DNA from: Dictyostelium discoideum | Taxonomy: Eukaryota | Reading direction: 5' to 3' | DNA length: 64,000 nt | Assembly: GCA_000004695.1 (NCBI GenBank) | Contig: CM000155.2 | Location: 1,504,001 to 1,568,000, forward strand | Part shown: positions 14,748-58,990 of the stretch, piece after piece | Position numbering within the stretch: the first letter of the stretch is position 1 | Layout: each line of letters begins with the position of its first letter | Translations under genes and position numbers: made by a program | The notes under the pieces: model-generated | What the model was told of the DNA's origin: nothing | The model's database searches: none | What the model saw: only the letters and a program-made list of their open reading frames with translations

Positions 14748-14821
<74 letters not shown>

Positions 14822-14918
14822 TGGATTAACAAGATTGATATATGTCCATCTGTGTTAATACGAGTTTTATTTAATATTTATTTAAAGGCTTATCATTTAA
14901 GCTGAAGGGTTATTTTAA

Positions 14919-17900
14919 TCATATGAATTGATCAAAAGATATAATATTTGGGAGAGATGATTCTGGAATACAATAGTAATTAGCTGTAGTTTTTCTTAGC
15001 TTGATCGTTGAAGTGAGAAGGATCTTAGGATCTTTGAAGTTATTATGGTCTTTTGCTGATAAGTTTTTCAGATCTTTTGCTTTTTTGATGTATTCTAGAG
15101 TGGCCAATTTGTGCCATTTCTTTAGAAGGGAGCTGTATGATAGTGATTCATCTGTTAAAGGATCTTCACTGTATATTTGATTGCAAATCCAAATCCAAAT
15201 GTTGTGGAGGATAAGGGCCATTAGGTTTCTATATGCGAATGATCTGGTTAGATCATAGTCTATTGCTTTATAGTTCCATTCAAAGTATTCTTTGTGGAAT
15301 CTGTGGTTGGCGTAATCTGCATTCACTTCTTGATCTTTTTTGGCTGTCGGTGATAATTTTGGAGTTATTCTACTAATGAAATTGTTATTTTGCCTAATTC
15401 TTGTATGGTGCCAGTTTTTACCTTTGCCTGTGGTAATATAGATGAAATTTTTGAGTTTATTTATTTTTATGAATTGTTTTGTTTTCTTGCATGAGAAGAA
15501 CAGGTGACCGTATGGGTCTTTGCTCATATCTTCTTTGCAGAGTGGGCATTGTTTGTTGTGAAGGTAGTTTATTGGAAGGCATCTGGCATGGAATCTAAAC
15601 ATTGTATCTCTTGTTTTAGGGTCTTTTATCTTCAGTATGTTGTTGAAGAGTTGATTATAGCTGTAGCCTCTTAAGTTTAGAGATGATTGGAATTCCGTTT
15701 TAGGGATGGTTGGATTTTGGTCTTGAATTGTGGTATACCATTCTGCCAGTGAAAGTGGTTGTCCATTTTCGTTTTTTATGGATGTGAGATTATTGTTGAA
15801 GATTGCTTTTTTTATTCTTATTTTGTTCCATTCGTCTAAGTTTTCTTTTAGGTATCTGGATGTGAATTTGTTTTTTTGGATCTGATATTCCCAGCTTTTG
15901 TGATGAGATGAGTTTGTTTGTTTGGTTTCTAGTGCTAGGATGAACTGGTTTATGATCCAAAGTTTCTGCGCCAGTTGTCTCAATTCTATATTCCAAATGT
16001 TCCAGCCCCCTACTTTTAGTGGGTATCTTGCTCTTTTGGTTCTCATTAAATTAATAACTTGAAATCCACTAGCATTTTTGTTGTTTGGTGCCGATAAAAA
16101 CCATTCGACTAGTTTATTGATTTGGTTTAATTCCTCTTCCTTAAAGTTCTCTACATATGAATAGTAGGTTAATTTAGAGAGTGCGAATGCTTTGAGGATG
16201 TTGGTTTTGGTTTTGATTGTTGAGTCAGTGGTTTTCCATAGTACTAAGGATGATCTTATTGTGTTTAATATTTCTGGCATTTTTCTTGTTATCCCTTTGC
16301 CTGTGAAGAAGTATCCCAAGTATCTTTCTGGATTTGTAGATATTGGAATTCTTTGGTTGGTATTGTCTGGGTTGCCTATAAGAATTGATGAAGATTTGTC
16401 GATGTTTAGTTTTGAGGAAGTGGCTTTGCAAAATGAATTGAAGTGTTGTAGTACTAATTCAAGTTGTTGAGAGTCTGGGACCATTGAAGCCGAGTCGTCT
16501 GCAAAGCTTTGGAATTTCTCTCTGTGGTTGCTGTTGTTTAGAGGAAGGCCAGTAATTCGGTCATCTTGTAAAATTTTTCTAGCTAAAGCCTCTATTACAA
16601 GGACGAACAGGGTGGGTGATAGTGGATCTCCTTGTTTAACTCCTCTTTTGATCTCAAAGGGTATAGTAGTTCTACCATTAATTTCAATTCTTGCTTCAGA
16701 TTTGGTGAGTAGATTCATTATCAGGTTGATTATATTGGTTGGAATGTTGATGTGTTGTAGTGATCTAAGTATTGAACCGTGTGAGATCGAGTCAAAAGCT
16801 TTTTCGAAATCATATAGTGTAATTATTCCGTTAATTCTTTTATCATTACAATAGTTGATTAATTCGTTCATTGATATGATATTATCTAGAATGAATCTGC
16901 CTGGTACGAAACCTTTTTGATTGTGGTTGATCACTTTCGTTAGTATTGGGATTATTCTATTGTTTATTAGCTTTGAGTGGATTTTATATATACAATTAGC
17001 CAGTGTAATTGGTCTTCTGTTTTTGATTAGTTCGGGGTCTCCCTTTTTAGGTATCGTGATAATGAGGCCTTCTTTGTAATTTTTGCTAATTAGATGAGGA
17101 TTTCTTAGAGTGTCGTTGAATGCTGAGGCCAGTATTGGAGCTAGTTTTTCTTTGTGTGTTATGTAGAATAAGTTTGGAATTCCATCTGGACCTGGAGATT
17201 TGTGTGGGTTCAGTTGTTTTATTACTTCTAGGATCTCTTGTGAGGTGAATTCATTTTCAAGGTTGTCCCATGTTGAGTCCCTGGTCACTGTCCAATTTTC
17301 CAACATTTCGTAATGAGATGGTGGGTCATCTTCTTTGTAGTCATAAAGATTTGAGTAATATTTTACGTATTCTTCTTCGATCAATTCCTGTTTGTTAATT
17401 GTTCTACCTTGTGCATCTTTTACTGCGTTGATGGTGAAATCATTGTGTCTTTTCTTGATTCTCGCGGAGATGTACTTGAGTGAGGTTTCTTCGCAATAGT
17501 TGTTCAATTCTTGTTTAAGTTGTTCTTCTCTTTTTTTAGATTCATTTATTGCTGAAAGGGTTGCGAAGGCTTGGTCTTTAAATTCTGTCTCTAGTAGGGA
17601 GATTAGATTTTTGATGTTTGCCTTATTGTTGTAGTCGTTTTGTTTTTGAAATTCGGTGTATAGTTGTTTTATTTTGTTCAGTAAGCTGTTGAGTTGAGAG
17701 AAGGAAATAGAGTTATGGTTGGCTGACAGCTCCCTTGAATAATCGTTAAGTAGGAAGTCTATTTTCTTAAGCATTATGCTTGAGAGGATTGAGGATTTTT
17801 TTAATCTCCATCTGCGCTTGTTCATCTGTATGTTGGGTAGAGTGAAAGTGGTTGATAGGAAGTTGTGATCTGATAGAGGTATGTCGTTAATTTTTGGGGG

Positions 17901-18623
17901 GATTAGGTTCCTTAGGTATAATTGGCTGTAGTTGATTAAGCTATTGTTAAGGTATATTCAGTCTAGTCTCCTTTCCAAGATTCTTGTGAGGTTATTGTTT
18001 GTGTTGTGTATCGTTCTTGAGAAGGTGGGTCTTTTATTTAGTTGGTCCATATCCATTAGGTTATTTGAAATTCTGATGGCTTCGATTACTGTGGCCATCT
18101 CATCTGGGGATTGTGTTGTCAAGTTGCCTTGGTCATCATTTGATGTGTGATTGTCATTGAAGTCTAAACAGTTGAAGTCTCCTGCTATGATGTCGATGTT
18201 TTTATTAGGGTTAGACGTTAGGTTGTGGTATTGGTTGTTGAAGTGTTTGTTTAGTGTTGAAGCTAGTGTTTTTCTTTTATCAGGTTGGGCCGGGGCGTAT
18301 ATGGCCAAGATTCTCGTTGTGGTATCTTTTATTAGAATGTCTGATATTATTAGTCTACCTTCTATTATGAATATTGGTGAGAGTTTTATGTTTTGGTTGT
18401 TGTGGTTTAGTATTCCTATTCCGTTGCCTCTGTTGGTTGCGCTAATGATGGAGCCAGGGAATAGCTGGTGTGCTTGTGTTGCGTCGGCGTTGAGTTCATT
18501 GACTATGGTTAGTGCCAATGAGTTTGGGGGGGATTGGGATTTGATAAAGTCTGTTTTGTTTTTGAAGGAGGTGTCAGTGCCCCAACCTCTGACATTCCAT
18601 TGGTTGATTTTGATTACTACCAT
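14919..18623 (-). pseudogene. TRE3-like ORF2 (APE + RT + zinc finger), copy A, interrupted
   Basis: The APE ORF 17958-18623 and the RT ORF 14919-17825 are separated by a stop or frameshift in 17826-17957. Confidence 0.55.
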
Positions 18624-19882
18624 TATGAGATGATATCGATCTCCTCTTGGGAGTCGTATAGCTGCGGTTTGGATGGTGAAGGGTAGATACTCTCTATGAA
18701 GCTCTCAATGATTCCTTTACTTTCTTTTTTGACAGGTGTCTTAGGGGTGGATGGGATGTAAGGGTTGCTTCTATTTATTGTTGGTGAGAGTTGGGTGACT
18801 TCATTGTTTGAGTGGATTTCCTCGTTCTTGCGTTTATGTGATGGAGGGATGTTTAGTGTCTTCTCTCTGTTTTCCGAGGATGAATGGATGTTATTGCTCG
18901 TTTTGTTGGCATTGTCTTTTTGGATGGCGTTGGATGTTGTGGTAGTGGTTGTGGTGGGTTTGACAGATTGAGATTCTGCTGGGTTTTTGGGGGGAAGAGG
19001 TTGAGATGACTTTTTTGCTTGGGCTTTTTTCTCTTGGGGGTGATTGTTTTTCAGACTGATTGTTTGCTGGGGGTTGTTTGTTTGTTGTTGTGGTTTTGGT
19101 TGAGAGGATTTGATTGCTATCCTGTTTTGGATGTTGGGAGGATCATCTGTCATCTCATCTTCTAATGGTTCTTCCGTGTTGTTTGACTTCTCTACTTTCT
19201 TGTTTTTCTTTGNTGAGGAGTAGGTTTTGGTGGCCGTTCTGATGGTAAAGTTTGCGATTTCTGTAATGTGTTGGCCAGATTTCATTTGATCGCCTATTTT
19301 GCATTCTATTAGACCGAATACTATGAGGTGGTCGGTGGAGTATATAGTATTGTATATTGCATAGGGTATTTCTTCTGCAAAGGCAGTTTTGATGAGGGCG
19401 TCCACTATTCCTGCCTTTTCTCTGGGAATTCTTACTCTTCCTGTGAGGACGTGGAAGTCTCTACTGGAGGTGATGAAGGTTCCCAATTTGCTTCTATCTC
19501 TAATGATATTTAGGAGAGATTGTTCGTTTTTAATCATCAGGTGGATCATTTTTCTAGTTCCTTTGCCTATGTATATCTTGTCGAATGGGATATCGTAGTT
19601 TGAGAGTGTTTTTCTCATTTCTTCTAACCCCTTGAGATCCATTTTGGGGAATTCGAGTGTAATTGGGTAGAATCCGTTGTTCTTCTCATAGGTTGAGAGC
19701 GCAGTCATGTTCAATATGGTCTCGCAGTATTTGGAGATGTCTTTGAGGCCTATTGATAGTTTGGGGTAGGTCTCCTTTATCTCTGCTGTTTTTGTGGAGA
19801 ATTCCTTAATGAAGTTCTCCGATGCCTCGTCCATATGGGTGGAGGGGTTGGCCATTTTAGCCGCGTCTGCGTAGGAATTCAT
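18623..19882 (-). CDS. TRE3-like ORF1 (419 aa), copy A
   Basis: ORF with a basic/Q/T-rich C-terminal half. Contains one ambiguous base (n at 19212, giving X in the translation). Stop TAA overlaps the ORF2 ATG (TAATG) at 18621-18625. Confidence 0.6.
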   Translation of the reverse strand: MNSYADAAKMANPSTHMDEASENFIKEFSTKTAEIKETYPKLSIGLKDISKYCETILNMTALSTYEKNNGFYPITLEFPKMDLKGLEEMRKTLSNYDIPFDKIYIGKGTRKMIHLMIKNEQSLLNIIRDRSKLGTFITSSRDFHVLTGRVRIPREKAGIVDALIKTAFAEEIPYAIYNTIYSTDHLIVFGLIECKIGDQMKSGQHITEIANFTIRTATKTYSSXKKNKKVEKSNNTEEPLEDEMTDDPPNIQNRIAIKSSQPKPQQQTNNPQQTISLKNNHPQEKKAQAKKSSQPLPPKNPAESQSVKPTTTTTTTSNAIQKDNANKTSNNIHSSSENREKTLNIPPSHKRKNEEIHSNNEVTQLSPTINRSNPYIPSTPKTPVKKESKGIIESFIESIYPSPSKPQLYDSQEEIDIIS

Positions 19883-20082
19883 CTCGATGGGATTCCTTTG
19901 AATCGGCGATTTGGTATGTTAGATCTGTAGATCGTGGTGGATTGGTGATTTTTTTTGAAAGATTGGTTAAAATTGACCGAGATTAAAGATAGAAAAGGAT
20001 GAATTACTTTTCACGTGTATCTTGTATCCTCTTGATCGCGGTACGGTTTTTTTTTCCAAATCTTTTGAGCAACTTGTCGTAG

Positions 20083-20127
<45 letters not shown>

Positions 20128-20224
20128 TGGATTAACAAGATTGATATATGTCCATCTGTGTTAATACGAGTTTTATTTAATATTTATTTAAAGGCTTATC
20201 ATTTAAGCTGAAGGGTTATTTTAA

Positions 20225-23200
20225 TCATATGAATTGATCAAAAGATATAATATTTGGGAGAGATGATTCTGGAATACAATAGTAATTAGCTGTTGTTTTT
20301 CTTAGCTTGATCGTTGAAGTGAGAAGGATCTTAGGATCTTTGAAGTTATTATGGTCTTTTGCTGATAAGTTTTTCAGATCTTTTGCTTTTTTGATGTATT
20401 CTAGAGTGGCCAATTTGTGCCATTTCTTTAGAAGGGAGCTGTATGATAGTGATTCATCTGTTAAAGGATCTTCACTGTATATTTGATTGCAAATCCAAAT
20501 CCAAATGTTGTGGAGGATAAGGGCCATTAGGTTTCTATATGCGAATGATCTGGTTAGATCATAGTCTATTGCTTTATAGTTCCATTCAAAGTATTCTTTG
20601 TGGAATCTGTGGTTGGCGTAATCTGCATTCACTTCTTGATCTTTTTTGGCTGTCGGTGATAATTTTGGAGTTATTCTATTAATGAAATTGTTATTTTGCC
20701 TAATTCTTGTATGGTGCCAGTTTTTACCTTTGCCTGTGGTAATATAGATGAAATTTTTGAGTTTATTTATTTTTATGAATTGTTTTGTTTTCTTGCATGA
20801 GAAGAACAGGTGACCGTATGGGTCTTTGCTCATATCTTCTTTGCAGAGTGGGCATTGTTTGTTGTGAAGGTAGTTTATTGGAAGGCATCTGGCATGGAAT
20901 CTAAACATTGTGTCTCTTGTTTTAGGGTCTTTTATCTTCAGTATGTTGTTGAAGAGTTGATTATAGCTGTAGCCTCTTAAGTTTAGAGATGATTGGAATT
21001 CCGTTTTAGGGATGGTTGGATTTTGGTCTTGAATTGTGGTATACCATTCTGCCAGTGAAAGTGGTTGTCCATTTTCGTTTTTTATGGATGTGAGATTATT
21101 GTTGAAGATTGCTTTTTTTATTCTTATTTTGTTCCATTCATCTAAGTTTTCTTTTAGGTATCTGGATGTGAATTTGTTTTTTTGGATCTGATATTCCCAG
21201 CTTTTGTGATGAGATGAGTTTGTTTGTTTGGTTTCTAGTGCTAGGATGAACTGGTTTATGATCCAAAGTTTCTGCGCCAGTTGTCTCAATTCTATATTCC
21301 AAATGTTCCAGCCCCCTACTTTTAGTGGGTATCTTGCTCTTTTGGTTCTCATTAAATTAATAACTTGAAATCCACTAGCATTTTTGTTGTTTGGTGCCGA
21401 TAAAAACCATTCGACTAATTTATTGATTTGGTTTAATTCCTCTTCCTTAAAGTTCTCTACATATGAATAGTAGGTTAATTTAGAGAGTGCGAATGCTTTG
21501 AGGATGTTGGTTTTGGTTTTGATTGTTGAGTCAGTGGTTTTCCATAGTACTAAGGATGATCTTATTGTGTTTAATATTTCTGGTATTTTTCTTGTTATCC
21601 CTTTGCCTGTGAAGAAGTATCCCAAGTATCTTTCTGGATTTGTAGATATTGGTATTCTTTGGTTGGTATTGTCTGGGTTGCCTATAAGAATTGATGAAGA
21701 TTTGTCGATGTTTAGTTTTGAGGAAGTGGCTTTGCAAAATGAATTGAAGTGTTGTAGTACTAATTCAAGTTGTTGAGAGTCTGGGACCATTGAAGCCGAG
21801 TCGTCTGCAAAGCTTTGGAATTTCTCTCTGTGGTCGCTGTTGTTTAGAGGAAGGCCAGTAATTCGGTCATCTTGTAAAATTTTTCTAGCTAAAGCCTCTA
21901 TTACAAGGACGAACAGGGTGGGTGATAGTGGATCTCCTTGTTTGACTCCTCTTTTGATCTCAAAGGGTATAGTAGTTCTACCATTAATTTCAATTCTTGC
22001 TTCAGATTTGGTGAGTAGATTCATTATCAGGTTGATTATATTGGTTGGAATGTTGATGTGTTGTAGTGATCTGAGTATTGAACCGTGTGAAATCGAGTCA
22101 AAAGCTTTTTCGAAATCATATAGTGTAATTATTCCGTTAATTCTTTTATCATTACAATAGTTGATTAATTCGTTCATTGATATGATATTATCTATAATGA
22201 ATCTGCCTGGTACGAAACCTTTTTGATTGTGGTTGATCACTTTCGTTAGTATTGGGATTATTCTATTGTTTATTAGTTTTGAGTGGATTTTATATATACA
22301 GTTAGCCAGTGTAATTGGTCTTCTGTTTTTGATTAGTTCGGGGTCTCCCTTTTTAGGTATCGTGATAATGAGGCCTTCTTTGTAATTTTTGCTAATTAGA
22401 TGAGGATTTCTTAGAGTGTCGTTGAATGCTGAGGCCAGTATTGGAGCTAGTTTTTCTTTGTGTGTTATGTAGAATAAGTTTGGAATTCCATCTGGGCCTG
22501 GAGATTTGTGTGGGTTCAATTGTTTTATTACTTCTAGGATCTCTTGTGTTGTGAATTCATTTTCAAGGTTGTCCCATGTTGAGTCCCTGGTCACTGTCCA
22601 ATTTTCCAACATTTCATAATGAGATGGTGCGTCATCTTCTTTGTAGTCATAAAGATTTGAGTAATATTTTACGTATTCTTCTTCGATCAATTCCTGTTTG
22701 TTGATTGTTCTACCTTGTGCATCTTTTACTGCGTTGATGGTGAAATCATTGTGTCTTTTCTTGATTCTCGCGGAGATGTACTTGAGTGAAGTTCTTCGCA
22801 ATAGTGTTCATGTTCAATTCTTGTTTAAGTTGTTCTTCTCTTTTTTTAGATTCATTTATTGCTGAAAGGGTTGCGAAGGCTTGGTCTTTAAATTCTGTCT
22901 CTAGTAGGGAGATTAGATTTTTGATGTTTGCCTTATTGTTGTAGTCATTTTGTTTTTGAAATTCTGTGTATAGTTGTTTTATTTTGTTTAGTAAGCTGTT
23001 GAGTTGAGAGAAGGAAATAGAGTTATGGTTGGATGACAGCTCCCTTGAATAATCGTTAAGTAGGAAGTCTATTTTCTTAAGCATTATGCTTGAGAGGATT
23101 GAGGATTTTTTTAATCTCCATCTGCGCTTGTTCATCTGTATGTTGGGTAGAGTGAAGGTGGTTGATAGGAAGTTGTGATCTGATAGAGGTATGTCATTAA

Positions 23201-23828
23201 TTTTTGGGGGGATTAGGTTCCTTAAGTATAATTGGCTGTAGTTGATTATGCTATTGTTAAGGTATATTCTGTCTAGTCTCCTTTCCAAGATTCTTGTGAG
23301 GTTATTGTTTGTGTTGTGTATCGTTCTTGAGAAGGTGGGTCTTTTATTTAGTTGGTCCATATCCATTAGGTTATTTGAAATTCTGATGGCTTCGATTACT
23401 GTGGCCATCTCATCTGGGGATTGTGTTGTCAAGTTGCCTTGGTCATCATTTGATGTGTGATTGTCATTGAAGTCTAAACAATTGAAGTCGCCTGCTATGA
23501 TGTCGATGTTTTTTTTAGGGTTAGACGTTAGGTTGTGGTATTGGTTGTTGAAGTGTTTGTTTAGTGTTGAAGCTAGTATTTTTCTTTTATCAGGTTGGGC
23601 CGGGGCGTATATGGCCAAGATTCTCGTTGTGGTATCTTTTATTAGAATGTCTGATATTATTAGTCTACCTTCTATTATGAATATTGGTGAGAGTTTTATG
23701 TTTTGGTTGTTGTGGTTTAGTATTCCTATTCCGTTGCCTCTGTTGGTTGCGCTAATGATGGAGCCAGGAAATAGCTGGTGTGCTTGTGTTGCGTCGGCGT
23801 TGAGTTCATTGACTATGGTTAGTGCCAA
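20225..23828 (-). pseudogene. TRE3-like ORF2, copy B, frameshifted
   Basis: The APE ORF 22746-23828 and the RT ORF 20225-22801 overlap out of frame. A 5-bp insertion (tcgat, about 23924-23928) near the ORF1/ORF2 junction is absent from copy A. Confidence 0.55.
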
Positions 23829-23936
23829 TGAGTTTGGGGGGGATTGGGATTTGATAAAGTCTGTTTTGTTTTTGAAGGAGGTGTCAGTGCCCCAACCTCT
23901 GACATTCCATTGGTTGATTTTGATCGATTACTACCA

Positions 23937-25190
23937 TTATGAGATGATATCGATCTCCTCTTGGGAGTCGTTTAGCTGCGGTTTGGATGGTGAAGGGTAG
24001 ATACTCTCTATGAAGCTCTCAATGATTCCTTTCCTTTCTTTATTGACAGGTGTCTTAGGGGTGGATGGGATGTAAGGGTTGCTTCTGTTTATTGTTGGTG
24101 AGAGTTGGGTGACCTCGTTGTTTGAGTGGATTTCCTCGTTCTTGCGTTTATGTGATGGAGGGATGTTTGGTGTCTTCTCTCTGTTTTCCGAGGATGAATG
24201 GATGTTAGTGCTCGTTTTGTTGGCATTGTCTTTTTGGATGGCGTTGGATGTTGTGGTAGTGGTTGTGGTGGGTTTGACAGATTGAGATTCTGCTTGGTTT
24301 TTGGGGGGAAGAGGTTGAGAGGATTTTTTTGATTGGGCTCTTTTCTCTTGGGTTGATTGTTTATCAGACTTATTGTTTGCTGGGTTGTTTGTTTGTTGTT
24401 GTGGTTTTGGTTGAGAGGATTTGATTGCTATCCTGTTTTGGATGTTGGGAGGATCATCTGTCATCTCATCTTCTAATGGTTCTTCCGTGTTGTTTGACTC
24501 TACTTTCTTATTTTTCTTTTGTGAGGAGTAGGTTTTGGTGGCCGTTCTGATGGTAAAGTTGGCGATTTCTGTATTGTGTTGGCCAGATTTCATTTGATCG
24601 CCTATTTTGCATTCTATTAGACCGAATACTAGGAGGTGGTCGGTGGAGTATATAGTATGGTATATTGCATAGGGTATTTCTTCTGCAAAGGCAGTTTTGA
24701 TGAGGGCATCCACTATTCCTGCCTTTTCTCTTGGAATTCTTACTCTTCCTGTGAGGACGTGGTAGTCTCTACTGGAGGTGATGAAGGTTCCCAATTTGCT
24801 TCTATCTCTAATGATATTTAGGAGAGATTGTTCGTTTTTAATCATCAGGTGGATCGTTTTTCTAGTTCCTTTGCCTATGTATATCTTGTCGATTGGGATA
24901 TCGTAGTTTGAGAGTGTTTTTCTCATTTCTTCTAACCCCATGAGATCCATTTTGGGGAATTCGAGTGTAATTGGGTAGAATCCGTTGTTTTTCTCGTAGG
25001 TTGAGAGAGCAGTCATGTTCAATATGGTCTCGCAGTATTTGGAGATGTCTTTGAGGCCTATTGATAATTTGGGGTAGGTCTCCTTTATCTCTGCTGTTTT
25101 TGTGGAGAATTCCTTAATGAAGTTCTCTGATGCCTCGTCCATATGGGTGGAGGGGTTGGCCATTTTAGCCGCGTCTGCGTAGGAATTCAT
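23937..25190 (-). CDS. TRE3-like ORF1 (417 aa), copy B
   Basis: 97-98% identical to copy A ORF1 at protein level. Confidence 0.6.
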   Translation of the reverse strand: MNSYADAAKMANPSTHMDEASENFIKEFSTKTAEIKETYPKLSIGLKDISKYCETILNMTALSTYEKNNGFYPITLEFPKMDLMGLEEMRKTLSNYDIPIDKIYIGKGTRKTIHLMIKNEQSLLNIIRDRSKLGTFITSSRDYHVLTGRVRIPREKAGIVDALIKTAFAEEIPYAIYHTIYSTDHLLVFGLIECKIGDQMKSGQHNTEIANFTIRTATKTYSSQKKNKKVESNNTEEPLEDEMTDDPPNIQNRIAIKSSQPKPQQQTNNPANNKSDKQSTQEKRAQSKKSSQPLPPKNQAESQSVKPTTTTTTTSNAIQKDNANKTSTNIHSSSENREKTPNIPPSHKRKNEEIHSNNEVTQLSPTINRSNPYIPSTPKTPVNKERKGIIESFIESIYPSPSKPQLNDSQEEIDIIS

Positions 25191-25427
25191 CTCGATGGGA
25201 TTCCTTTGAATCGGCGATTTGGTAAATTAGATCTGTAGATCGTGGTGGATTGGTGATTTTTTTTGAAAGATTGGTTAAAATTGACCGAGATTAAGGATAG
25301 AAAAGGATGAATTACTTTTCACGTGTATCTTGTATCCTCTTGATCGCGGTGCGGTTTTTTTTTCCGTAGTTGTATATTCCACATACCTAAAATTTATAAA
25401 TTATAACTATAAAATTTACATAAAAAA

Positions 25428-25500
25428 TGGAGAAGAAGGGTATCGATCCCTTTACCTCTCGCATGCTAAGCGAGCGCTCTACCATCTGAGCTACATCCCC
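25428..25500 (-). tRNA. tRNA-Ala (anticodon AGC)
   Basis: Minus-strand sequence GGGGATGTAGCTCAGATGGTAGAGCGCTCGCTTAGCATGCGAGAGGTAAAGGGATCGATACCCTTCTTCTCCA. It has an A box TAGCTCAGATGG, an anticodon loop CTTAGCATG and the G3:U70 Ala identity pair. The B box GGGATCGATACC is slightly atypical. TRE elements on both flanks argue for an active Pol III gene. Confidence 0.8.
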
Positions 25501-25540: not shown

Positions 25541-26216
25541 GAAATGAGATCGAAAAAAACAAACAACAACAACAATCTCTTTTTTTGATTATTTCATTTT
25601 TCATATAAAAAAGACTTAAAAAACAAATAAATAAATAAATAAACTATTTTAAAAAGCCATCTTTTTACTTTATTGTAATTTATTATTTGTTTCGTTTTGA
25701 GAATTTTGCGTAGCAAAATTTTCAAAAAAAAAGCAAAAAATAATCAGATCGAAAAAAACAAACAACAACAACAATCTCTTTTTTTGATTATTTCATTTTT
25801 CATATAAAAAAGACTTAAAAAACAAATAAATAAATAAATAAACTATTTTAAAAAGCCATCTTTTTACTTTATTGTAATTTATTATTTGTTTCGTTTTGAG
25901 AATTTTGCGTAGCAAAATTTTCAAAAAAAAAGCAAAAAATAATCAGATCGAAAAAAACAAACAACAACAACAATCTCTTTTTTTGATTATTTCATTTTTC
26001 ATATAAAAAAGACTTAAAAAACAAATAAATAAATAAATAAACTATTTTAAAAAGCCATCTTTTTACTTTATTGTAATTTATTATTTGTTTCGTTTTGAGA
26101 ATTTTGCGTAGCAAAATTTTCAAAAAAAAAGCAAAAAATAATCAGATCGAAAAAAACAAACAACAACAACAATCTCTTTTTTTGATTATTTCATTTTTCA
26201 TATAAAAAAGACTTAN

Positions 26217-26269
<53 letters not shown>

Positions 26270-26929
26270 CGGGGAACCAAGTTAATTAAAAAATTTCCAA
26301 ATTTTTAACTTTTTAAGGAAAATTAAAAAGGATGGAAGGAAATTAAATGGAAATTCCCAACCACCCCCCCAAATATTAGGCAACCCAATGGCCTACAAAA
26401 AATAAGCAAATTTGGGGATAAAACTCATTTAAAAAAAAAACAATTCAAATACGTCTTAAACTTCATTCCCGAACCCGGCGATAAAATAAAAAAAGATTTA
26501 AAAAAAAGTTTGGCCAAAAAAAATGTTTTAATCAAAAAGCCCCTGTAAAAAAAAAAAAAAAAATAAAATGGGGTTTAGCATTTCAAGGAGAAGCAAAAAA
26601 AAATTGCGTTATCCCATTCCAAAAAAAAAAAAAATATATAATTTTTATCCCATAAAAAAAAAAAAAAAAAAAAAAAAAAGGTAAACCAACCCCTCTTTTA
26701 GAGACCCTGTAAAAAAAATAAAATAAAATAAAATGAGATCTAGCATCTCAAGGAGAAGCAAATAATAATTGCGTTATCCAATTCAAAAAAAAAAAATATA
26801 TATAATTTTACAATTACATTCAAGAAAAATCTGGAGGATCCAGAATCAATTGGGGAATAGAAATATTCAACAGACTAGACATTCCATAAACAGCCAACGC
26901 CATAGCCATTATTTGCGAAAACATCTGGA
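25541..26929 (+). mobile_element. TRE5-A-derived block 1: A-module tandem array (about 3.4 copies) + poly(A) + degenerate internally deleted TRE5-A copy
   Basis: Begins about 45 bp upstream of the tRNA-Ala 5' end, divergent orientation. 198-bp A-module units at 25549-26215. Region 26263-26929 is an error-rich copy of 30105-30730. Confidence 0.6.
25549..26215 (+). repeat. TRE5-A A-module tandem repeat, period 198 bp, about 3.4 copies
   Basis: unit atcagatcgaaaaaaacaaacaacaacaacaatctc…gcaaaaaataatc repeats at 25745, 25943, 26141. Confidence 0.8.
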
Positions 26930-27029: not shown

Positions 27030-28280
27030 AACAACCATCAACAACGATCTCTTTGTTTGATTATTTCATTTTTCATATAAAAAAGACTTAAAAAACAAAT
27101 AAATAAATAAATAACTATTTTAAAAAGCCATCTTTTTACTTTATTGTAATTTATTATTGGTTTCGTTTTGAGAATTTTGCGTAGCAAAATTTTCAAAAAA
27201 AAAGCAAAAAATAATCAGATCGAAAAAAACAAACAACAACAACAATCTCTTTTTTTGATTATTTCATTTTTCATATAAAAAAGACTTAAAAAACAAATAA
27301 ATAAATAAATAAACTATTTTAAAAAGCCATCTTTTTACTTTATTGTAATTTATTATTTGTTTCGTTTTGAGAATTTTGCGTAGCAAAATTTTCAAAAAAA
27401 AAGCAAAAAATAATCAGATCGAAAAAAACAAACAACAACAACAATCTCTTTTTTTGATTATTTCATTTTTCATATAAAAAAGACTTAAAAAACAAATAAA
27501 TAAATAAATAAACTATTTTAAAAAGCCATCTTTTTACTTTATTGTAATTTATTATTTGTTTCGTTTTGAGAATTTTGCGTAGCAAAATTTTCAAAAAAAA
27601 AGCAAAAAATAATCAGATCGAAAAAAACAAACAACAACAACAATCTCTTTTTTTGATTATTTCATTTTTCATATAAAAAAGACTTAAAAAACAAATAAAT
27701 AAATAAATAAACTATTTTAAAAAGCCATCTTTTTACTTTATTGTAATTTATTATTTGTTTCGTTTTGAGAATTTTGCGTAGCAAAATTTTCAAAAAAAAA
27801 GCAAAAAATAATCAGATCGAAAAAAACAAACAACAACAACAATCTCTTTTTTTGATTATTTCATTTTTCATATAAAAAAGACTTAAAAAACAAATAAATA
27901 AATAAATAAACTATTTTAAAAAGCCATCTTTTTACTTTATTGTAATTTATTATTTGTTTCGTTTTGAGAATTTTGCGTAGCAAAATTTTCAAAAAAAAAG
28001 CAAAAAATAATCAGATCGAAAAAAACAAACAACAACAACAATCTCTTTTTTTGATTATTTCATTTTTCATATAAAAAAGACTTAAAAAACAAATAAATAA
28101 ATAAATAAACTATTTTAAAAAGCCATCTTTTTACTTTATTGTAATTTATTATTTGTTTCGTTTTGAGAATTTTGCGTAGCAAAATTTTCAAAAAAAAAGC
28201 AAAAAATAATCAGATCGAAAAAAAACAAACAACAACAACAATCTCTTTTTTTGATTATTTCATTTTTCATATAAAAAAGG

Positions 28281-28290
<10 letters not shown>
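27030..28290 (+). repeat. TRE5-A A-module tandem repeat, period 198 bp, about 6.4 copies
   Basis: unit starts at 27215, 27413, 27611, 27809, 28007, 28205. Confidence 0.8.
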
Positions 28291-28341
<51 letters not shown>

Positions 28342-28416
28342 GGAACCAAGTTAATTAGAAAATTTCCAGATTTTTAACTTTTTAAAGAAAAATAAAAAAG
28401 ATAGAAAGAAAATAAA

Positions 28417-29751
28417 ATGAAAATCACAAACAACACCACAAATATTAAGCAACACAAATGCCTACAAAAAATAAGCGAAATTGTGGATAAAACTCAATTA
28501 AAAAAAAAACAATTCAAATACGTCATAAACATCAATCACGAACCAGACGATAAAATAAAAAAAGATTTAGAAAAAAGTTTGGACAAAAAAGATGTTTTAA
28601 TCAAAAGTAATAATACATTCAAAATTCTCACAGACAGTATTAGTACAGTAATCTATTTTGTAAATATGTTTGATGCAGAATTAAAAGGACAATTTATAAC
28701 CACTATAAGACCAAAAAATATGTATACAGATTTTGATTGGTATAAATCACTCACAGAAATAGAATGGGTAATAGAAAATGAAGGATGTAAACTAATTAAA
28801 TCAGAAATTAAAGGCGAAACTCTAATTATCAAAACAGTGAAAAGAGTCGTAGAAGAATTTGACACTATCATTGAACTAGACAATCTAACATTAATTGGAC
28901 ACTCCAACAAAGGATGGAGAGATCAAACCTCATTACCAGAAAATCAAGAAGAAAACAAAAATAAAAAACAATCAGATGAACAACAACCACAATCTACATC
29001 AGAACAAATACCAAAACAAGGAAAAAGAACAATCATTATCCCACCAATCACATCCTCATCTAATGATAAAACATTTATGGCCCTAGATGATACAGCTCAA
29101 AAGGTAATAGAAGCATCACTAGAAAACGTAGATGAACTAACAAGAATAGAGAATGAGATCAATACACAATCGATAAACAATCAAGAAATTAAAACAAAAT
29201 CAGAAAAACCTATCGAACCACCATCTCCATACAATACACCAATAAAACAACACGGCGAAACAAAGGGACTAACAACGGAAGAAAAACTTAGAGAGGCAAA
29301 TGATATCTTCGACTTCACCAGCCCAAACACTGATGCAATAAGAAAAATAGAATTCCCACTTTCAATCCCTTCAAATCAATGGTTCTTCTCCTCTCCAATA
29401 AAACATATCATGAGTTTCAGCCCAACCTATGGTACACCATCGAAAATTATCGATTCACCAAGTAAATTGTTAAACACACCAAAAAAGAAACAACAAGACA
29501 AAACAAACAAGACCAACAAAACACCAGTCAAACCAAAATTGGGTGAATATGGACAAAAAAGCATAAAAACAAAAATGGATGAAGATATAGACAACTTCAA
29601 CAAGGAAATTCTAAAACAAATCAATAAATCAAAAAACCCCACAAACACACAAGACCAACAACACAACGAACAAAGTAAAGATCAGTTAGAAGACAAAATA
29701 AACCAGAAACTTCAAAAGGTAGATAAAAATCTACCCCAAATAAAACTATAA
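28417..29751 (+). CDS. TRE5-A ORF1 protein (444 aa)
   Basis: Complete ORF MKITNNTTNIKQHK… directly downstream of the A/B modules. The first 62 codons recur at 30149 and, in degraded form, at 26340 and 31200. Confidence 0.65.
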   Translation: MKITNNTTNIKQHKCLQKISEIVDKTQLKKKQFKYVININHEPDDKIKKDLEKSLDKKDVLIKSNNTFKILTDSISTVIYFVNMFDAELKGQFITTIRPKNMYTDFDWYKSLTEIEWVIENEGCKLIKSEIKGETLIIKTVKRVVEEFDTIIELDNLTLIGHSNKGWRDQTSLPENQEENKNKKQSDEQQPQSTSEQIPKQGKRTIIIPPITSSSNDKTFMALDDTAQKVIEASLENVDELTRIENEINTQSINNQEIKTKSEKPIEPPSPYNTPIKQHGETKGLTTEEKLREANDIFDFTSPNTDAIRKIEFPLSIPSNQWFFSSPIKHIMSFSPTYGTPSKIIDSPSKLLNTPKKKQQDKTNKTNKTPVKPKLGEYGQKSIKTKMDEDIDNFNKEILKQINKSKNPTNTQDQQHNEQSKDQLEDKINQKLQKVDKNLPQIKL

Positions 29752-30107: not shown

Positions 30108-31032
30108 CAAGTTAATCAGAAAAATAAAAAAGATAGAAAGAAAATAAAATGAAAATCACAAACAACACCACAAATATTAAGCAACACAAATGCCTACAAA
30201 AAATAAGCGAAATTGTGGATAAAACTCAATTAAAAAAAAAACAATTCAAATACGTCATAAACATCAATCACGAACCAGACGATAAAATAAAAAAAGATTT
30301 AGAAAAAAGTTTGGACAAAAAAGATGTTTTAATCAAAAAGACCCTGTAAAAAAAAAAAAAAAAATAAAATGAGATCTAGCATCTCAAGGAGAAGCAAATA
30401 ATAATTGCGTTATCCAATTCAAAAAAAAAAAAATATATATAATTTTAATCCAATAAAAAAAAAAAAAAAAAAAAAAAAAAGGTAAACCAACCCCTCTTTT
30501 AGAGACCCTGTAAAAAAAATAAAATAAAATAAAATGAGATCTAGCATCTCAAGGAGAAGCAAATAATAATTGCGTTATCCAATTCAAAAAAAAAAAATAT
30601 ATATAATTTTACAATTACATTCAAGAAAAATCTGGAGGATCCAGAATCAATTGGGGAATAGAAATATTCAACAGACTAGACATTCCATAAACAGCCAACG
30701 CCATAGCCATTATTTGCGAAAACATCTGGAGAGGAAGAAACAAGAAAATCCACGAAGGAATAACACTCAAAAACTTAAGAAAACAACTACTAGTACACGA
30801 ACTAAAGAAAACTCAAACAGCAGCTTGGGAAAGAACAAAAAACAACATATACAAACTAATCAGACAAGAAAAAAAAGCAACCAACAACGAACAAATAAAA
30901 AAATTCAAAAACATCATCTCCCTACAACTCGAAAGATTTAGCAAACACTGGAACTCACCACTACACACAGTAGCACTACCATCAAACCTCAACAAATATA
31001 TTACGTCTCTAAATACACTCTACACCCCCCAA

Positions 31033-31099: not shown

Positions 31100-31371
31100 G
31101 TAATATACAATAAAATTAATAAAATGAGATATATCTCAAGAAGAAGCAACTAAAAATTGCGTTATTCTATTCAAAAAAAAAATATATATAATTTTAATGC
31201 CTACAAAAAATAAGCGAAATTGTGGATAAAACTCAATTAAAAAAAAAACAATTCAAATACGTCATAAACATCAATCACTAACCATACGATAAAATAAAAA
31301 AAGATTTAGAAAAAAGTTTGGACAAAAAAGATGTTTTAATCAAAAGTTATAATACAATTCAAAATTCGAAA

Positions 31372-31416
<45 letters not shown>

Positions 31417-31560
31417 TAAACCAACCCCTCTTTTAGAGACCCTGTAAAAAAAAAAAAAAAAATAAAATGAGATCTAGCATCTCAAGGAGAAGCAAATAAT
31501 AATTGCGTTATCCAATTCAAAAAAAAAAAAATATATATAATTTTTTTTTATAAACAAATA
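31100..31560 (+). mobile_element. further short TRE5-A-derived fragments (ORF1-start-like and internal motifs with poly(A) runs)
   Basis: diverged copies of the 30150-30350 and 30340-30440 motifs. Confidence 0.4.
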
Positions 31561-32170: not shown

Positions 32171-35145
32171 TTAATAATATTGGCAGTTCCTATAAGATTT
32201 TATTGTATTGATAATTGAATCTAGTTGGATTACTAATGAATTTCTATTTATTAAATAATCATTTTCATTAAAATTTTTAATTTGATTCATTAAATGGGGA
32301 AAATATTCATTATCACATGAGTCCTTAAAATACTGATTTAAGATTGTAAATGATGATTTGGTAATATCAGTTTTGCCAAATTGTAATGATGTTTTACAAA
32401 ATTTTACTATTTGAAGTGTATGTAAATAATAATGATATTTGTCACTATAATTTTCTCCAATTACTTTTAAAATATTATTAATTGATGATAATTCTAAATT
32501 AAGACAGCACCACCTTATGCTTGGTAGTACTGCACAATTCTTTTTATAAACTGAACATGAATATTCCCATTCCTTTAAAAATAAATCATTTCTTTTTAGT
32601 GACATGAATAACTTTAAATTATTCAAATAATCAGATTCATTTTTGACATAGAAACTTTCTTTATCTTTATATGGACGACTTATCATTGAATCCAATAAAT
32701 CATTAAATGGTGATTGTTTAATGGATTCTAATGTTATCGATTCAAGCAAATCTTTATTTCTATAATCAATCGATTCATAATATTCATACAATAATCTTGA
32801 TCTTTTATAAATGAAAAATAGTTTTATTTCTTTTGTTTCAACATTAATTTCCAATTGATTTTCAATTAAAAATTGATAAATTTGCTCAATTAATTCATGA
32901 TTTATATATTCTCTTTTATTCAAAAATGTATGTACTAATATTTGAAAATATAATTGCAAATTTGCTTGATGTGAGGTTGTTGTAACTGTTATTATTGTTG
33001 CTGTTGATGATGATGATGAACATTTTTGAAAATTTCTACTATTTCTATTGATTTGGTTATTTGTTTTAATTATTTCTTTTGATTTATTAAATTGGTTGAT
33101 GAATGATTTAATAAGAGATTCTGAAAAATTTGGCTTGCTAAAATCAAAATCTTCACCTTTAATTATAAAATTCTCTATTATGAATCTTGAATAATTATTA
33201 TTAGATATTATATTTCCCTGTGTATCCTTAAATAAATTTTCAGCAGGTTGGGCATTTAAATTGGTGTTGATTTTAATTTTTGAAATATTAAATTTCGCTT
33301 GAGGATTTAATGTGCTTGTATTATTTCTATCACTATCATCTTCATAAAAACCATTTCTACATATATATTCTACTAAATCGTAATATTCTCGAGGAGTAAC
33401 CATTTTATTATCAAAAATAAAATTGAATAATCTATTATATTCTTGATAAATTGATTCATCTTCTTGATTTAATAATCTTTCATTTAAAGAATATGGTAAA
33501 CAACGTAAATAATAAAGTACAGATTTAAATTGAATACCTAATGAATGAAAATGTTTAATCTCTTGAATATTACATTGTATAATTGCTTTTAAAAATGGTA
33601 TTCGATAATAATATTGTAAATCTTCAGTGATTGAATATAACTCTATAAAGTGATTCGATAATTCAATAGAATCGAAATAGAAATAAATTTCAAATAACCT
33701 TAATTCTAATTTATTTAATGATGGTTCTCTCTGATACCATTGTACAACCCAATCCATTGTTTCAATATCTTTGATAATAGGGAGGGGATGATTATATCTA
33801 TCGTGAAAGATTATCATTAATGGATTCCATGTTTTTGGTAAATATTTTTTATATTTATTTGGTATATATTTGAATAGTTCTTCATATGTTAATTTATTAT
33901 CTATTTTTAGCATTATACCACCAATGGTTTCATGTAAATATTTTTCTATATCAACTTTAAAACTAATTCCTTCATATTTATCATCATCCTCTTCATCATC
34001 ATCTTCTTCTTCTTCTTCTTCTTCTTCTTCTTCATCTTCTTCTTCTTCTTCTTCTTCATCTTCTTCTTCTTCTTCTTCTTCTTCTTCTTCTTTTTCTTCT
34101 TCTTTTTCTTCTTTTTCTTTTTCTTCATCTTTTTCTTTTTCTTCCTTTTCTTTTTCTTCTTTATCATTTTGAAAACCATTGATATTATTTATTTTTGATA
34201 AAAGGGTTCTAAGGAATTCAACTGATCTATTTAAATTTTCATTTGCGGTTGAGTAAATATAGAAAGAATAACGTTTTTGAGGATCGAAAGTGAAATCCAT
34301 TTGTTTCAATATTGAAGGAATGTAATTTTTAAGACTACATTCAAATGCAGTCTTTTTAAAATCATCAATTGACATTAATTCATCAGGCAATACTTCATCA
34401 TGATATTTTGATAAATATAATTCTAATAGTTGATCTGATCGTGTTAAGATAATTAATTTTATAAGCATTTTTTGAATATGATCCTCTTCATTTTGTTCTA
34501 ATAATAATAATAATAATTCTGATTGCTGTTGTTCTTTTGGTTTTTGTTCTCCAAATAATTCTAAACATTTTAATAAAATTTCTAATCTATCTTGATTGTT
34601 AAAATTTTCACGTTCTTTAAATACCTTTTCAATATAATCTAATAGCTTATATATAGTTTTGTAATTTATAGTAACTGCTAAATATTCAAATCTAATGTCT
34701 TTATTTTGACGTTTTATAAATTCTAAATTTTTATTTGATTGATTTGGTTGTTCTTTTATTATATGATTTATCATAATACGGGTTAATGTAGTAAAATGTC
34801 TGCTGTTATCAAATAAATATGGGATAGAATCAAATGAAAATTCATTATCCATTAAACTCATTGTATATGATTCAAAGTTTGTTGTTGTTGTTGTTGTTGT
34901 TGTAGTTGTTGTTTTTGTTGTATTATTATTTTTATTATTAATATTATTAAGAGTTTCAAGTAATAAATTGATAATTTCATAACCACCATTTTTATATGCA
35001 ACTTTTATTATTTTTTTATCTTTCAAAAATTCAAAATTCCTTTTTTCAAGTACTAATTGCAATATCTCTTTATATAATTCAATGTTGATTGATCTTTGAC
35101 ATTTTAATCTATAATATTCTCTTGGTGAATCTATTATTTGTACTC

Positions 35146-35244
<99 letters not shown>

Positions 35245-35548
35245 CATTATTATTATTATTATTGTTATTATTATTATCAATTAAATATAGATTGAATAAT
35301 GACTTTATATTAAATTTACTAATATGAACATATTCATTATTTTTTAATTTATATTTTAGTAATTGAAATTGATTATTTTTAATCATCCATTTTAAATCAT
35401 AAATATGTTTAAATTTTGTCCGATTCTCTTTACCTAATGATATGGGTTCATAATTAATCCATTCATTATTTTCTATATGATCTAATATTTTGTAAAATAA
35501 ATATTTATTGTGAATTACTTTCCAAAATAGTACTTCATTAATATCCAT
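32171..35548 (-). CDS. hypothetical low-complexity protein, 1125 aa (poly-N about 55, poly-T, long E/D and KE tracts)
   Basis: single uninterrupted ORF with a true ATG; no domain recognised. Confidence 0.5.
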
Positions 35549-35966
35549 ATTATTATTATTATAAAAAATAATTGTGGAAAAAAAAAAGAAAATAGGAAAA
35601 AAATTTGAAAAAAAAAAAAAAAAAAAAATCTTGGAGAATGAGGATAGTTTTTTTGGTTGAAAAAAAAAAAAAAAAAAAAATTTTTAATTCCAAATAAAAA
35701 AAAAAAAAAATAAAAAAATAATAATATTAATGTTCCCAATTTTTTTATTTATTTTTATTGTCATTTTGATTTTTTGAATTGTCCTCTTGAGGGTTAATTT
35801 TTTTTTTTTTTTGTAACAATTGAAACCACCATTAAAATTGTGGAGTTTATATAATAAGTTAATTGATTTATTTGGTTTTTGTGTTGAAATAATGATAATT
35901 TCCTTTTATTACGCTTTGAGCAAGCAAAAAAAAAAAATAAAAAGAAAAAAAAAAAAAAAAAAAAAA

Positions 35967-36060
35967 ACAGATGACTACATTCATTTTATATATTTTTTAT
36001 ATCATTTTGTGTATTTTTGAGTGCTCTATTTATCTATACTAAATTCATATTAAAAATTAA
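35967..36060 (+). repeat. about 95-bp interspersed repeat, copy 1
   Basis: acagatgactacattcattttatatattttttatatcattttgtgtatttttgagtgctctatttatctatactaaattcatattaaaaattaa. Confidence 0.7.
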
Positions 36061-36280
36061 ACAAAATAAATATACCCCATTGTCCATGCCAAAATTACTA
36101 CATTAATTTCAGCAGCCTCAGTAATTTTAGCATGCATAGAGCACCTATTTTAATATGGTAAAACTAGCGGGCTGAATTTAATATGATAAAATTGGTATCA
36201 AAAATTAATATGGTAAAACTAGCGGGCTGAAATTAATACACCCAATCAAATCCAATTTCAAAAAAAAAAAAAAAAAAAAA

Positions 36281-36374
36281 ACAGAATGACTACATTCATT
36301 TTATATATTTTTTATATCATTTTGTGTTTTTGAGTGCTCTATTTATCTAAACTAAATTCATATTAAAAATTAAT
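36281..36374 (+). repeat. about 95-bp interspersed repeat, copy 2 (direct, 220 bp from copy 1)
   Basis: about 95% identical to copy 1. Confidence 0.7.
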
Positions 36375-36531
36375 AATTTAAAAAAAAAAAAAAAAAAAAT
36401 CAAAAATAAAATTAAAATGAAAAAAAAATTTTTTGGGTGTCCCAATTGAATGTTTTTATTAATTTTATTTTTCATTTTTTTTTTTTTTTATTTTTTTTTT
36501 TTAATTTTCATTTTCTTTTTTTTTTTTTTAA

Positions 36532-57963: not shown

Positions 57964-58001
57964 CCTAAAAATATTAATAAAAAAAAAAAATTTTAATTGG
58001 G

Positions 58002-58308: not shown

Positions 58309-58756
58309 TTTATCTTAAAAAACCTTTATTGATAATTTTACAATAATATATCTATTTATATATATATAAAATAAAATTTGTTAGAAAAAAAAAAAATGAA
58401 AAAAAAAAAAATGGGCGGAAAAAAAAAATAAAAAAAAAAAAAAAATAAAAAAATGAAAAACAAAAAATAAAAAAAAAATAAAAAAATTCACGCAAAATTA
58501 ATGAAGTTCTATTTGTTTTTTGATTTAAGAGTATTTTTTTTTTTTTTTTTATTTAACAGATTTTAAAAAAGGAATATATTAAGAAAAATGAATTGATTAA
58601 AATATTTGAGAAAATTTTTATAATTTAAAATATCTCCCCCTTTCTCACCACAATATTTGTTTATAAAAAAAAAATTGAAAAAAAAAAAAAATTTTATTTT
58701 TAATTTTTCTAATTTTTTTTTTTTTAATAATGATTTAATTTAATTTATTTTTAAAT

Positions 58757-58837
58757 ATGGATTAAGTATAGATAAATAGAGAACTCAAAAATACACAAAA
58801 TGATATAAAAAATGAATGTATCCATTCTGTTTTTTTG
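58757..58837 (-). repeat. about 95-bp interspersed repeat, copy 4 (inverted orientation)
   Basis: reverse complement matches copy 2. Confidence 0.6.
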
Positions 58838-58852: not shown

Positions 58853-58889
<37 letters not shown>

Positions 58890-58900
58890 AAAAACAAAAT

Positions 58901-58990
58901 CCATTGATTTTTTTTATATTTTGTATGATTTGTATTGTATATTTTTGGGTGCTCTATTTTTATATACTATATTCAAATTAAAAATTAATA
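58901..58990 (+). repeat. about 95-bp interspersed repeat, copy 3 (more diverged)
   Basis: …tttttgggtgctctatttttatatactatattcaaattaaaaattaa; forms an inverted pair with copy 4. Confidence 0.55.

Follow-up and report, generated by a model that had tools for sequence, protein, structure and literature searches.

We analysed a 64-kb window of Dictyostelium discoideum AX4 chromosome 6 (25% GC, with long homopolymer runs), in which two intergenic regions carry four copies of a short AT-rich repeat. The first region, locus 1, spans 983 bp and separates two divergent genes, a 1125-aa open reading frame (ORF; 32171-35548, minus strand) and a Sec24-like gene (ATG at 36532). The second, locus 2, lies 22.5 kb away on the same chromosome and is bounded by the 3' end of a TrkH-family (Trk) gene and by the ZC3H15/DFRP gene (minus strand, ATG at 58308, exon 1 at 58308-58144). 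A first-pass annotation of the window had placed the repeats upstream of the Sec24-like gene and between ZC3H15 and the Trk gene, and our ORF map matches this context. The family proved to be a real, lineage-restricted and strain-variable short repeat without sign of function, and has the look of a young, probably selfish or accidental duplicate. The features at the two loci are listed below, with the copies named c1 to c4; the strains and assemblies mentioned (L003, FIR, FIY and FIZ) are those of the comparison that follows.

35926..35967, plus strand: A-rich leader before c1, A12-T-A5-G-A24, the last ~21 A lying within the duplicated c1/c2 unit (read directly)
35967..36060, plus strand: copy c1, 94-nt core, 18% GC; profile match 35952-36072 including leader and tail ACAAAATAAATA
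36061..36259, plus strand: spacer between c1 and c2, 199 bp, 31% GC (BLASTN and comparison with L003)
36069..36077, plus strand: AATATACCC, left 9-bp direct repeat bounding the 172-bp spacer core at 36079-36250 (read directly)
36086..36133, plus strand: spacer hairpin ATGCCAAAATTACT / AGTAATTTTAGCAT, 14-bp stem and 20-nt loop (spacer fold)
36152..36176, plus strand: first AATATGGTAAAACTAGCGGGCTGAA 25-mer (exact match)
36207..36231, plus strand: second AATATGGTAAAACTAGCGGGCTGAA 25-mer, 55-bp period (exact match)
36235..36243, plus strand: AATACACCC, right 9-bp direct repeat bounding the spacer core (read directly)
36260..36281, plus strand: A22 leader of c2 (read directly, BLASTN)
36281..36374, plus strand: copy c2, orthologue of the single FIR copy at L010 20375-20458 (alignment)
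58749..58837, minus strand: copy c3, lacking 9 bp that are present in c1; profile match 58731-58844; present in AX4 and FIY, absent from FIZ
58857..58887, no strand: A-run between the heads of the inverted pair (read directly)
58901..58990, plus strand: copy c4, the most diverged AX4 copy; profile match 58880-59003; orthologues in AX4, FIY and FIZ

A BLASTN search of the whole window with c1 (35967-36060) as the query recovered c2 at 36286-36373 (plus strand, 96.7% over 90 nt, E 6.6e-39), c3 at 58749-58813 (minus strand, 93.8% over 65 nt, E 2.2e-23) and c4 at 58935-58988 (plus strand, 88.9% over 54 nt, E 4.7e-12). No fifth copy was found in the 64 kb by this search, the next match being a 15-mer with an E of 0.004. 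A hidden Markov model profile built from eight family members drew in the same four copies in the window and nothing further, with limits extended to 35952-36072, 36267-36375, 58731-58844 and 58880-59003, each about 110-125 nt. The four copies of the first-pass annotation were thereby all located where it had placed them, with c3 now beginning at 58749 and not at 58757. The near-identity that it had noted between the directly repeated c1 and c2 was borne out by optimal pairwise alignment (98.9%, with one substitution and two small indels), as was the inverted arrangement of the second pair, in which c3 (minus) and c4 (plus) lie head to head around the A-run at 58857-58887. Optimal pairwise identities between the other copies are 92.6% for c1 and c3, 84.5-85.7% for c1 and c4, depending on end-gap scoring, and 77-82% for c3 and c4. 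A degenerate 23-mer of the core, used in one metagenome scan, gave a single chance match in coding-looking, probably bacterial DNA of 43% GC.

The unit typically consists of an A-rich leader, a core of ~94 nt and a tail of ~15 nt similar to TAAAATTAAATCA, about 110-130 bp in total, and the family consensus can be written as A-leader-CAGAATGACTACATTCATTTTATATATTTTTTATATCATTTTGTGTATTTTTGAGTGCTCTATTTATCTATACTAAATTCATATTAAAAATTAATAAAATTAAATCA. The copy cores themselves are 89-94 nt long and AT-rich, with a GC content of 17-20%. The stretch duplicated between c1 and c2 includes the leader, 35946-36060 matching 36260-36373 in BLASTN. An A-rich leader precedes most family copies, being short in c3 of AX4 and weak in c3 and c4 of FIY. 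A-runs are also encountered 3' of copies (A20 after c2 and A13 after c3), and the long A-runs sit 5' of the core. The two ends of the unit share a direct sub-terminal repeat, ACTAMATTCAT, seen as ACTACATTCATTTTA and ACTAAATTCATATTA.

Both loci were fetched, where possible, from eight further assemblies that were found by protein searches, and copies were called by BLASTN together with the profile. Locus 1 was sampled in AX4, L003 (an independent assembly of a 99.8%-identical, AX4-like strain), the strains FIR and FIW, D. cf. discoideum FIY, D. citrinum and D. firmibasis, and locus 2 in AX4, FIY, FIZ, D. citrinum and D. firmibasis. AX4 carries two copies at each locus. L003 also has two copies at locus 1, in an identical c1-spacer-c2 block, and its independent assembly shows that this block did not arise as an artefact of assembly. 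At the same locus a single copy is present in FIR and none in FIW, the sequence corresponding to 35952-36391 of the window being absent from FIW with the flanks contiguous. FIY has no copy at locus 1 and two at locus 2; in FIZ a single copy, the orthologue of c4, is found at locus 2 and c3 is absent; and D. citrinum and D. firmibasis have no copies at either locus. Among the nine assemblies the family is thus an insertion polymorphism, with 0, 1 or 2 copies at locus 1 and likewise at locus 2. The view of the first-pass annotation that this is an interspersed family is borne out, and the variation between close relatives is of the kind that a mobile or duplicative element would show; the specific labels that it attached to the family are unsupported, as discussed below.

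To order these states we drew on the coding sequence of PSME4, which is 100% identical to that of AX4 in L003, 98.5-98.6% in FIW and FIR (99.4% between the two), 97.8% in FIY, 92% in D. citrinum and 85% in D. firmibasis, and on locus alignments of 14-21 kb, in which FIZ falls outside the AX4 and FIY pair. The approximate relationships from both sources are ((AX4,(FIW,FIR)),FIY),FIZ, followed by D. citrinum and then D. firmibasis. Copy number rises through 1, 2, 3 and 4 toward AX4, and gains therefore need fewer events than losses. As the sole copy with orthologues in AX4, FIY and FIZ, c4 is the oldest insertion seen, and c3 was either gained in the ancestor of AX4 and FIY or lost in FIZ. The locus-1 copy probably arose in the clade of AX4, FIR and FIW, from the last of which it is missing, and the near-identity of c1 and c2 is confined to the AX4 lineage. 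We infer that the differences are mostly gains and that the copying is transposition-like.

The alleles of locus 1 form a series that runs from the empty site of FIW through the single copy of FIR to the two copies plus spacer of AX4. The FIW allele reads ...TTTCCTTTAGTATGTTTT-A8TATAAATA7TGAAAA-T12GGGTGTC, with no block inserted. The FIR allele begins with TTTGATTAAGC-A21, which is followed by a 110-bp unrelated AT-rich segment (X), and continues with ACAAAATAAATACACCCTC-A38, one tailed copy, TTTGATGTTTT and the shared flank; because of this extra sequence it is not a clean solo. The AX4 allele consists of GAGCAAGC, the A-rich leader of ~42 nt, c1, ACAAAATAAATATACCCC, the lineage-unique 172-bp core, AATACACCCAATCAAATCCAATTTC-A22 and c2. 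The tail of AX4 c2 was lost by a 14-bp deletion, and the right junction in AX4 is deleted. The possibility that segment X of FIR is a degenerate family member, whether inverted or direct, was rejected, since the match was not significant against shuffles (p 0.19-0.98); only its final ~26 nt match the junction between the c1 end and the tail.

Inspection of the ends revealed no terminal inverted repeats (TIRs), the 5' end, A-leader-CAGAATGACTACATTCA, mismatching the reverse complement of the 3' end, TGATTTAATTTTATTAATTTTTAAT. With FIW taken as the empty allele, TTTGAT is found on both sides of the FIR block, a weak candidate for a target-site duplication in such low-complexity sequence, since a 6-mer could plausibly occur by chance in DNA of 80% AT. 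The empty site in FIW reads TTTAGTAT, and the junctions of c3 fall inside T-runs. There are no termini of the long terminal repeat (LTR) type, as the repeats begin with CAGA and end with TTAA, not TG...CA. Likewise, neither c1 on the plus strand nor c2 on the minus strand is followed by a TGG-type primer-binding site, and TGGTATCA occurs only once, in the middle of the spacer.

The segment between c1 and c2 had been noted in the first-pass annotation as containing a repeat of its own, and this corresponds to the 25-mer AATATGGTAAAACTAGCGGGCTGAA, which has two exact occurrences against 0 expected from 100 shuffles. Within the ~310 kb compared, the spacer matched only the near-identical strain L003. 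It has no coding capacity, and its folding stability is ordinary relative to shuffles (z -0.26). No donor for the 172-bp spacer core (36079-36250) was found within the 64-kb window. This core is bounded by a 9-bp direct repeat, AATAYACCC, of which FIR has a single instance (AATACACCC) with the core absent, and its history could be either a nested insertion or a deletion through microhomology. The hairpin at 36086-36133 (ATGCCAAAATTACT / AGTAATTTTAGCAT) sits within this AX4-specific core, and its loop carries TTAATTTCAGC, which repeats part of the 25-mer's end in inverted form. Non-coding RNA promoters of the DUSE (Dictyostelium upstream sequence element) type have the consensus [AT]CCCA[CT]AA; ACCCAATC and ACCCCATT in the spacer misfit it, and such a promoter was accordingly discarded as a candidate.

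The reading that we prefer, with a probability of about 0.4, is that the family represents a young, low-copy, non-autonomous element, mobile or otherwise spreading by duplication, which was gained stepwise within the D. discoideum species complex and is confined to it. Under this scheme c4 would have come first, downstream of the Trk gene, c3 would have been added next, beside c4 and inverted, and a copy upstream of Sec24 would have followed; the second Sec24 copy would be the last, produced by duplication or homogenisation. The element would settle in A/T-tract-rich intergenic DNA of a gene-dense genome, and decay neutrally after insertion. At least three separate copying events (c4/c3, locus 2/locus 1 and c1/c2) involved the same unit with roughly the same limits, and it is this re-use of one unit, along with the stepwise gain on the tree, that favours a transposition-like spread. 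Moreover, c1 and c2 keep the ancestral G in GAGTGCTC, at which both c3 orthologues carry T, and the retention in c1 and c2 of a base lost by both c3 orthologues hints at a donor other than the visible neighbours. However, several observations weigh against an element of this kind. There are no TIRs, no clear target-site duplication (TSD), no LTR-type termini or primer-binding site, and no poly(A) tail at the FIR 3' junction, the sole one that can be compared with an empty allele (FIW). The locus-1 alleles differ by several nested indels and not by one clean insertion, and the empty site of FIW may be a deletion, given that its sister strain FIR is occupied. Further, the family is seen at two loci only, 22.5 kb apart, among several unrelated local duplications, and since c1 resembles the neighbouring c3 most closely (92.6%), the donor may have been local. 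The main rival is local templated duplication, in which the copies would be left behind by replication or repair of A/T-tract-rich DNA. Template switching, fold-back synthesis, unequal recombination or gene conversion would have carried one stretch of ~120 bp from an intergenic region into another nearby, inverted in the case of c3/c4 and in tandem in that of c1/c2. We regard this as possible, though on the unlikely side. In its favour, the two loci are only 22.5 kb apart on a single chromosome, c1 and c2 most resemble the nearby c3 (91-93%), and TIRs, clear TSDs and tails are lacking. Head-to-head and tandem dimers, junctions buried in homopolymers and nested indels, as seen here, are what template switching typically leaves. 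Other duplications in the same window are a tandem one of 5.3 kb, the 199-bp arrays, a dispersed one of 612 bp and an inverted repeat of 360 bp. Yet random template switches should vary in their end points, and here the same unit was copied with about the same ends at least three times. A copy of c3 made after speciation would additionally require a reversal at the GAGTGCTC site, and the 172-bp spacer core is without a donor in the 64 kb.

The unit is unlikely to be a fragment or terminal part of a catalogued Dictyostelium element, such as DDT, Tdd, thug or an end of TRE, DGLT or Skipper, even though several families of DNA transposons in D. discoideum possess non-coding ends and derivatives (review PMC5633606) and strain-variable intergenic insertions would suit any of these families. 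In the searchable literature, none of the 14- to 16-mers taken from the core or spacer appears, no tRNA gene lies within 10 kb of either locus, unlike the situation with TRE, and 10-mers of c1, c3 and c4 were unmatched in one supplementary file of the microRNA paper PMC6161686, a file that may lack full sequence lists. Thug-S, compared here by its description, is a gene-bearing element with an intron and multicopy microRNAs (miRNAs) (PMC4894637), and the 100-bp unit is therefore not like it. A shared cis-regulatory module, as proposed in the first-pass annotation, or a portable core-promoter cassette (TATATAT/TATAAAA plus a homopolymer run) selected upstream of Sec24 and ZC3H15, is very unlikely. 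The orientation of c2 and c3 toward their downstream genes, 158 and 441 bp from the respective ATGs, the TATA-like strings beside long A/T runs in the unit, the core GAGTGCTCTATTT as its best-kept part, and the frequent presence of a T-run before the start site in Dictyostelium promoters (PMC6161686) would all accord with such a cassette. Against it, the block upstream of Sec24 is missing entirely in FIW, as is c3 upstream of ZC3H15 in FIZ; neither D. citrinum nor D. firmibasis carries a single copy; and c4 is oriented into the 3' end of the Trk gene. The divergence of the copies points the same way. Optimal pairwise alignment gives 83-89% identity for orthologous copies of AX4 and FIY or FIZ, and 92.7% for AX4 c2 and its FIR orthologue; the neighbouring intergenic DNA is 81-89% identical, and the orthologous copies are no better conserved. 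In a five-species alignment of locus 2, AX4 and FIY are 76% identical over the c4 segment, 86% over the c3 segment and 89% over the proximal promoter. The c3/c4 pair lies in a distal stretch that corresponds in D. citrinum and D. firmibasis to no more than a short T-rich linker. In the proximal ~350 bp upstream of ZC3H15 (58309-58664), by contrast, there are blocks of sequence that all five species share, as far as D. firmibasis. With this neutral-like divergence and with sister strains that lack copies at the same housekeeping genes, the copies appear to be dispensable for these genes, and a shared regulatory module is not supported by the sequence comparison. Least probable of all the explanations considered is that the copies are small RNA genes, or that c3/c4 is a hairpin precursor of miRNAs or small interfering RNAs, with the 25-mers of the spacer acting as box C/D-like guides. 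The c3/c4 pair can form an imperfect hairpin of ~100 bp (-52.6 kcal/mol, z = -6.0), and Dictyostelium miRNAs arise mostly from intergenic hairpins (PMC6161686); the spacer also carries, as read from its sequence, ATGATAA...CTGA with a 5-bp terminal stem. However, this hairpin is the trivial outcome of an inverted repeat and is not present in FIZ, where only one of its arms exists. On neither strand do single copies fold better than dinucleotide shuffles (z -1.2 to +1.9), nor is the spacer more stable than its shuffles, and the spacer core is absent from FIR, the nearest copy-bearing strain. The only Rfam match over the window is tRNA-Ala at 25428-25500; at either locus we detected only chance-level matches, whether with gathering or permissive thresholds (E up to 10), and ARAGORN and Rfam found no tRNA-, 7SL- or 5S-like head there. 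Sequence words of the copies or the 25-mers were likewise without a match in one supplementary file of the miRNA paper PMC6161686 or in one of the D. discoideum box C/D small nucleolar RNA (snoRNA) paper PMC8817022, files that may lack full sequence lists.

Two further candidates were set aside. A box C/D snoRNA drawn from the CTGA-ending 25-mers is without Rfam support and its sequence is absent from FIR. A small hydrophobic ORF of 23 aa, MTTFILYIFYIILCIFECSIYLY, found in c1 and also in c3, is disrupted by a frameshift in c2 and is without an ATG in the copies of FIR, FIY and FIZ.

Several observations concern the genes that flank the two loci. An exact protein-record look-up of the 1125-aa ORF returned no entry, and a Sec24 fragment used as a protein query returned only Heterostelium, amid low-complexity candidates. 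In FIY (GCA_054859205), 2.8 kb of unalignable DNA (L005 20226-23016) replaces the 854-bp intergenic region that lies upstream of Sec24 in AX4, and this replacement holds a 301-aa ORF (21490-22395) without a Pfam match. In D. firmibasis (L004 20071-20258) and D. citrinum (L006 19805-20116) synteny with AX4 ends ~70 bp upstream of the Sec24 ATG. The neighbour of Sec24 in these species lies on the same strand as Sec24 (minus in locus coordinates); in D. firmibasis it is an FNIP-repeat gene, in D. citrinum a gene of 342 aa. Given these different same-strand neighbours, the divergent pair of AX4 is a derived arrangement. At locus 2, the conserved promoter and 5' blocks of ZC3H15, for example GATATTTTAAATTATAAAAATTTTCTCA, AAATAGAACTTCATT, TTGCGTGAATTTTT and CGTTCATTTTT, are candidate regulatory elements. 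The ZC3H15 intron (57964-58143) contains an A-run of ~46 nt. The spliced 373-aa AX4 ZC3H15 protein is not in the protein collection that we searched, which does include orthologues from five other assemblies.

The window contains additional duplications away from the two loci. The second copy of a 5.3-kb tandem duplication (14782-20057 / 20088-25365, 98.3%) stops 63 bp short of tRNA-Ala-AGC (25428-25500, minus strand), the sole tRNA gene of the window. Adjoining this gene are 199-bp tandem arrays at 25543-26241 and 27030-28310, with about 3.5 and 6.4 units respectively (96-100%). The window has 102 N in total, at least one of them at about 26216, just before a long A-run that follows the first of these arrays. 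Dispersed duplicates of 612 bp at 93% occupy 26318-26929 and 30119-30730, and shorter pieces of the same family (97-100%) are found at 28386-28627, 30189-30610 and 31196-31544, all within about 5 kb. A 360-bp inverted repeat (3399-3757 / 6727-7082, 82-90% complementary) flanks about 3 kb.

A bolder form of the mobile-element reading, which we hold to be quite unlikely, would make this an uncatalogued and still active family that spreads without TIRs, LTRs or a poly(A) tail, in a rolling-circle, Helitron-like or otherwise unusual manner, and that prefers promoter A/T tracts. Were this true, each copy would bring a TATA-plus-homopolymer cassette able to seed transcription starts, for example a minus-strand transcript from c2 into the unique spacer. 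Should copies prove to be spread across the genome, the family would extend the short list of Dictyostelium mobile DNAs by a small non-autonomous element, none of the families in the literature examined being of such a size, and would supply a presence/absence marker for the D. discoideum / cf. discoideum species complex. Were it limited to the two loci, it would exemplify fast remodelling of AT-rich Dictyostelium intergenic DNA by local copying. In either case, a repeated promoter-proximal sequence should not be called regulatory without a check in sister strains.

The first-pass annotation had suggested the ends of a composite transposon, and this fails on the spacer, which is non-coding, is matched only in L003 and lacks its 172-bp core in FIR. 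The arrangement at locus 1 is reminiscent of terminal-repeat retrotransposons in miniature (TRIMs) and solo LTRs, in that it offers a series of empty, one-copy and repeat-internal-repeat alleles, with near-identical direct repeats flanking ~200 bp and a purine (A) run just before the 3' repeat. It differs from them in that TG...CA termini, a primer-binding site after c1 and a 4-6-bp TSD are lacking. The FIR allele also differs from a clean solo in keeping a 110-bp unrelated segment and part of the spacer, and the 98.9% identity of c1 and c2 is far above the 92.7% between c2 and its FIR orthologue. TRE5 and TRE3 elements share with the repeat the organism and AT-rich non-coding sequence. TRE3 integrates about 100 bp downstream of a tRNA gene. 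TRE5-A integrates about 50 bp upstream of tRNA genes, and TRE elements have AT-rich non-coding terminal modules, with non-autonomous variants that are mobilised in trans (PMC5633606). The window has a single tRNA gene, which lies 10 kb from locus 1 and 33 kb from locus 2, and with no such gene near either locus membership in the TRE group fails.

Templated insertions and fold-back products resemble the repeat in that short segments are placed, directly or inverted, at a site not far away on the chromosome of origin, with homopolymer junctions and no transposon hallmarks; however, such events do not normally re-use the same unit and ends three or more times. A short interspersed nuclear element (SINE), another label of the first-pass annotation, would be comparable in size, in the adjacent A-rich runs and in the apparent stepwise gain within a lineage. 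Nevertheless, in the absence of a tRNA-, 7SL- or 5S-like head and of an Rfam match this is not a classical SINE, and it further differs in that the long A-run is 5' of the core, not 3', and in that the FIR-FIW junction has no poly(A) tail. The label of miniature inverted-repeat transposable element (MITE) is not supported, since the direct sub-terminal repeat ACTAMATTCAT is found in place of TIRs; no clear TSD of defined length emerged, and copies were seen at two loci only. With MITEs the repeat nonetheless has in common a length of about 100 bp, an AT-rich and non-coding sequence, a position in intergenic or promoter DNA of a compact genome, insertion polymorphism and the occasional formation of dimers.

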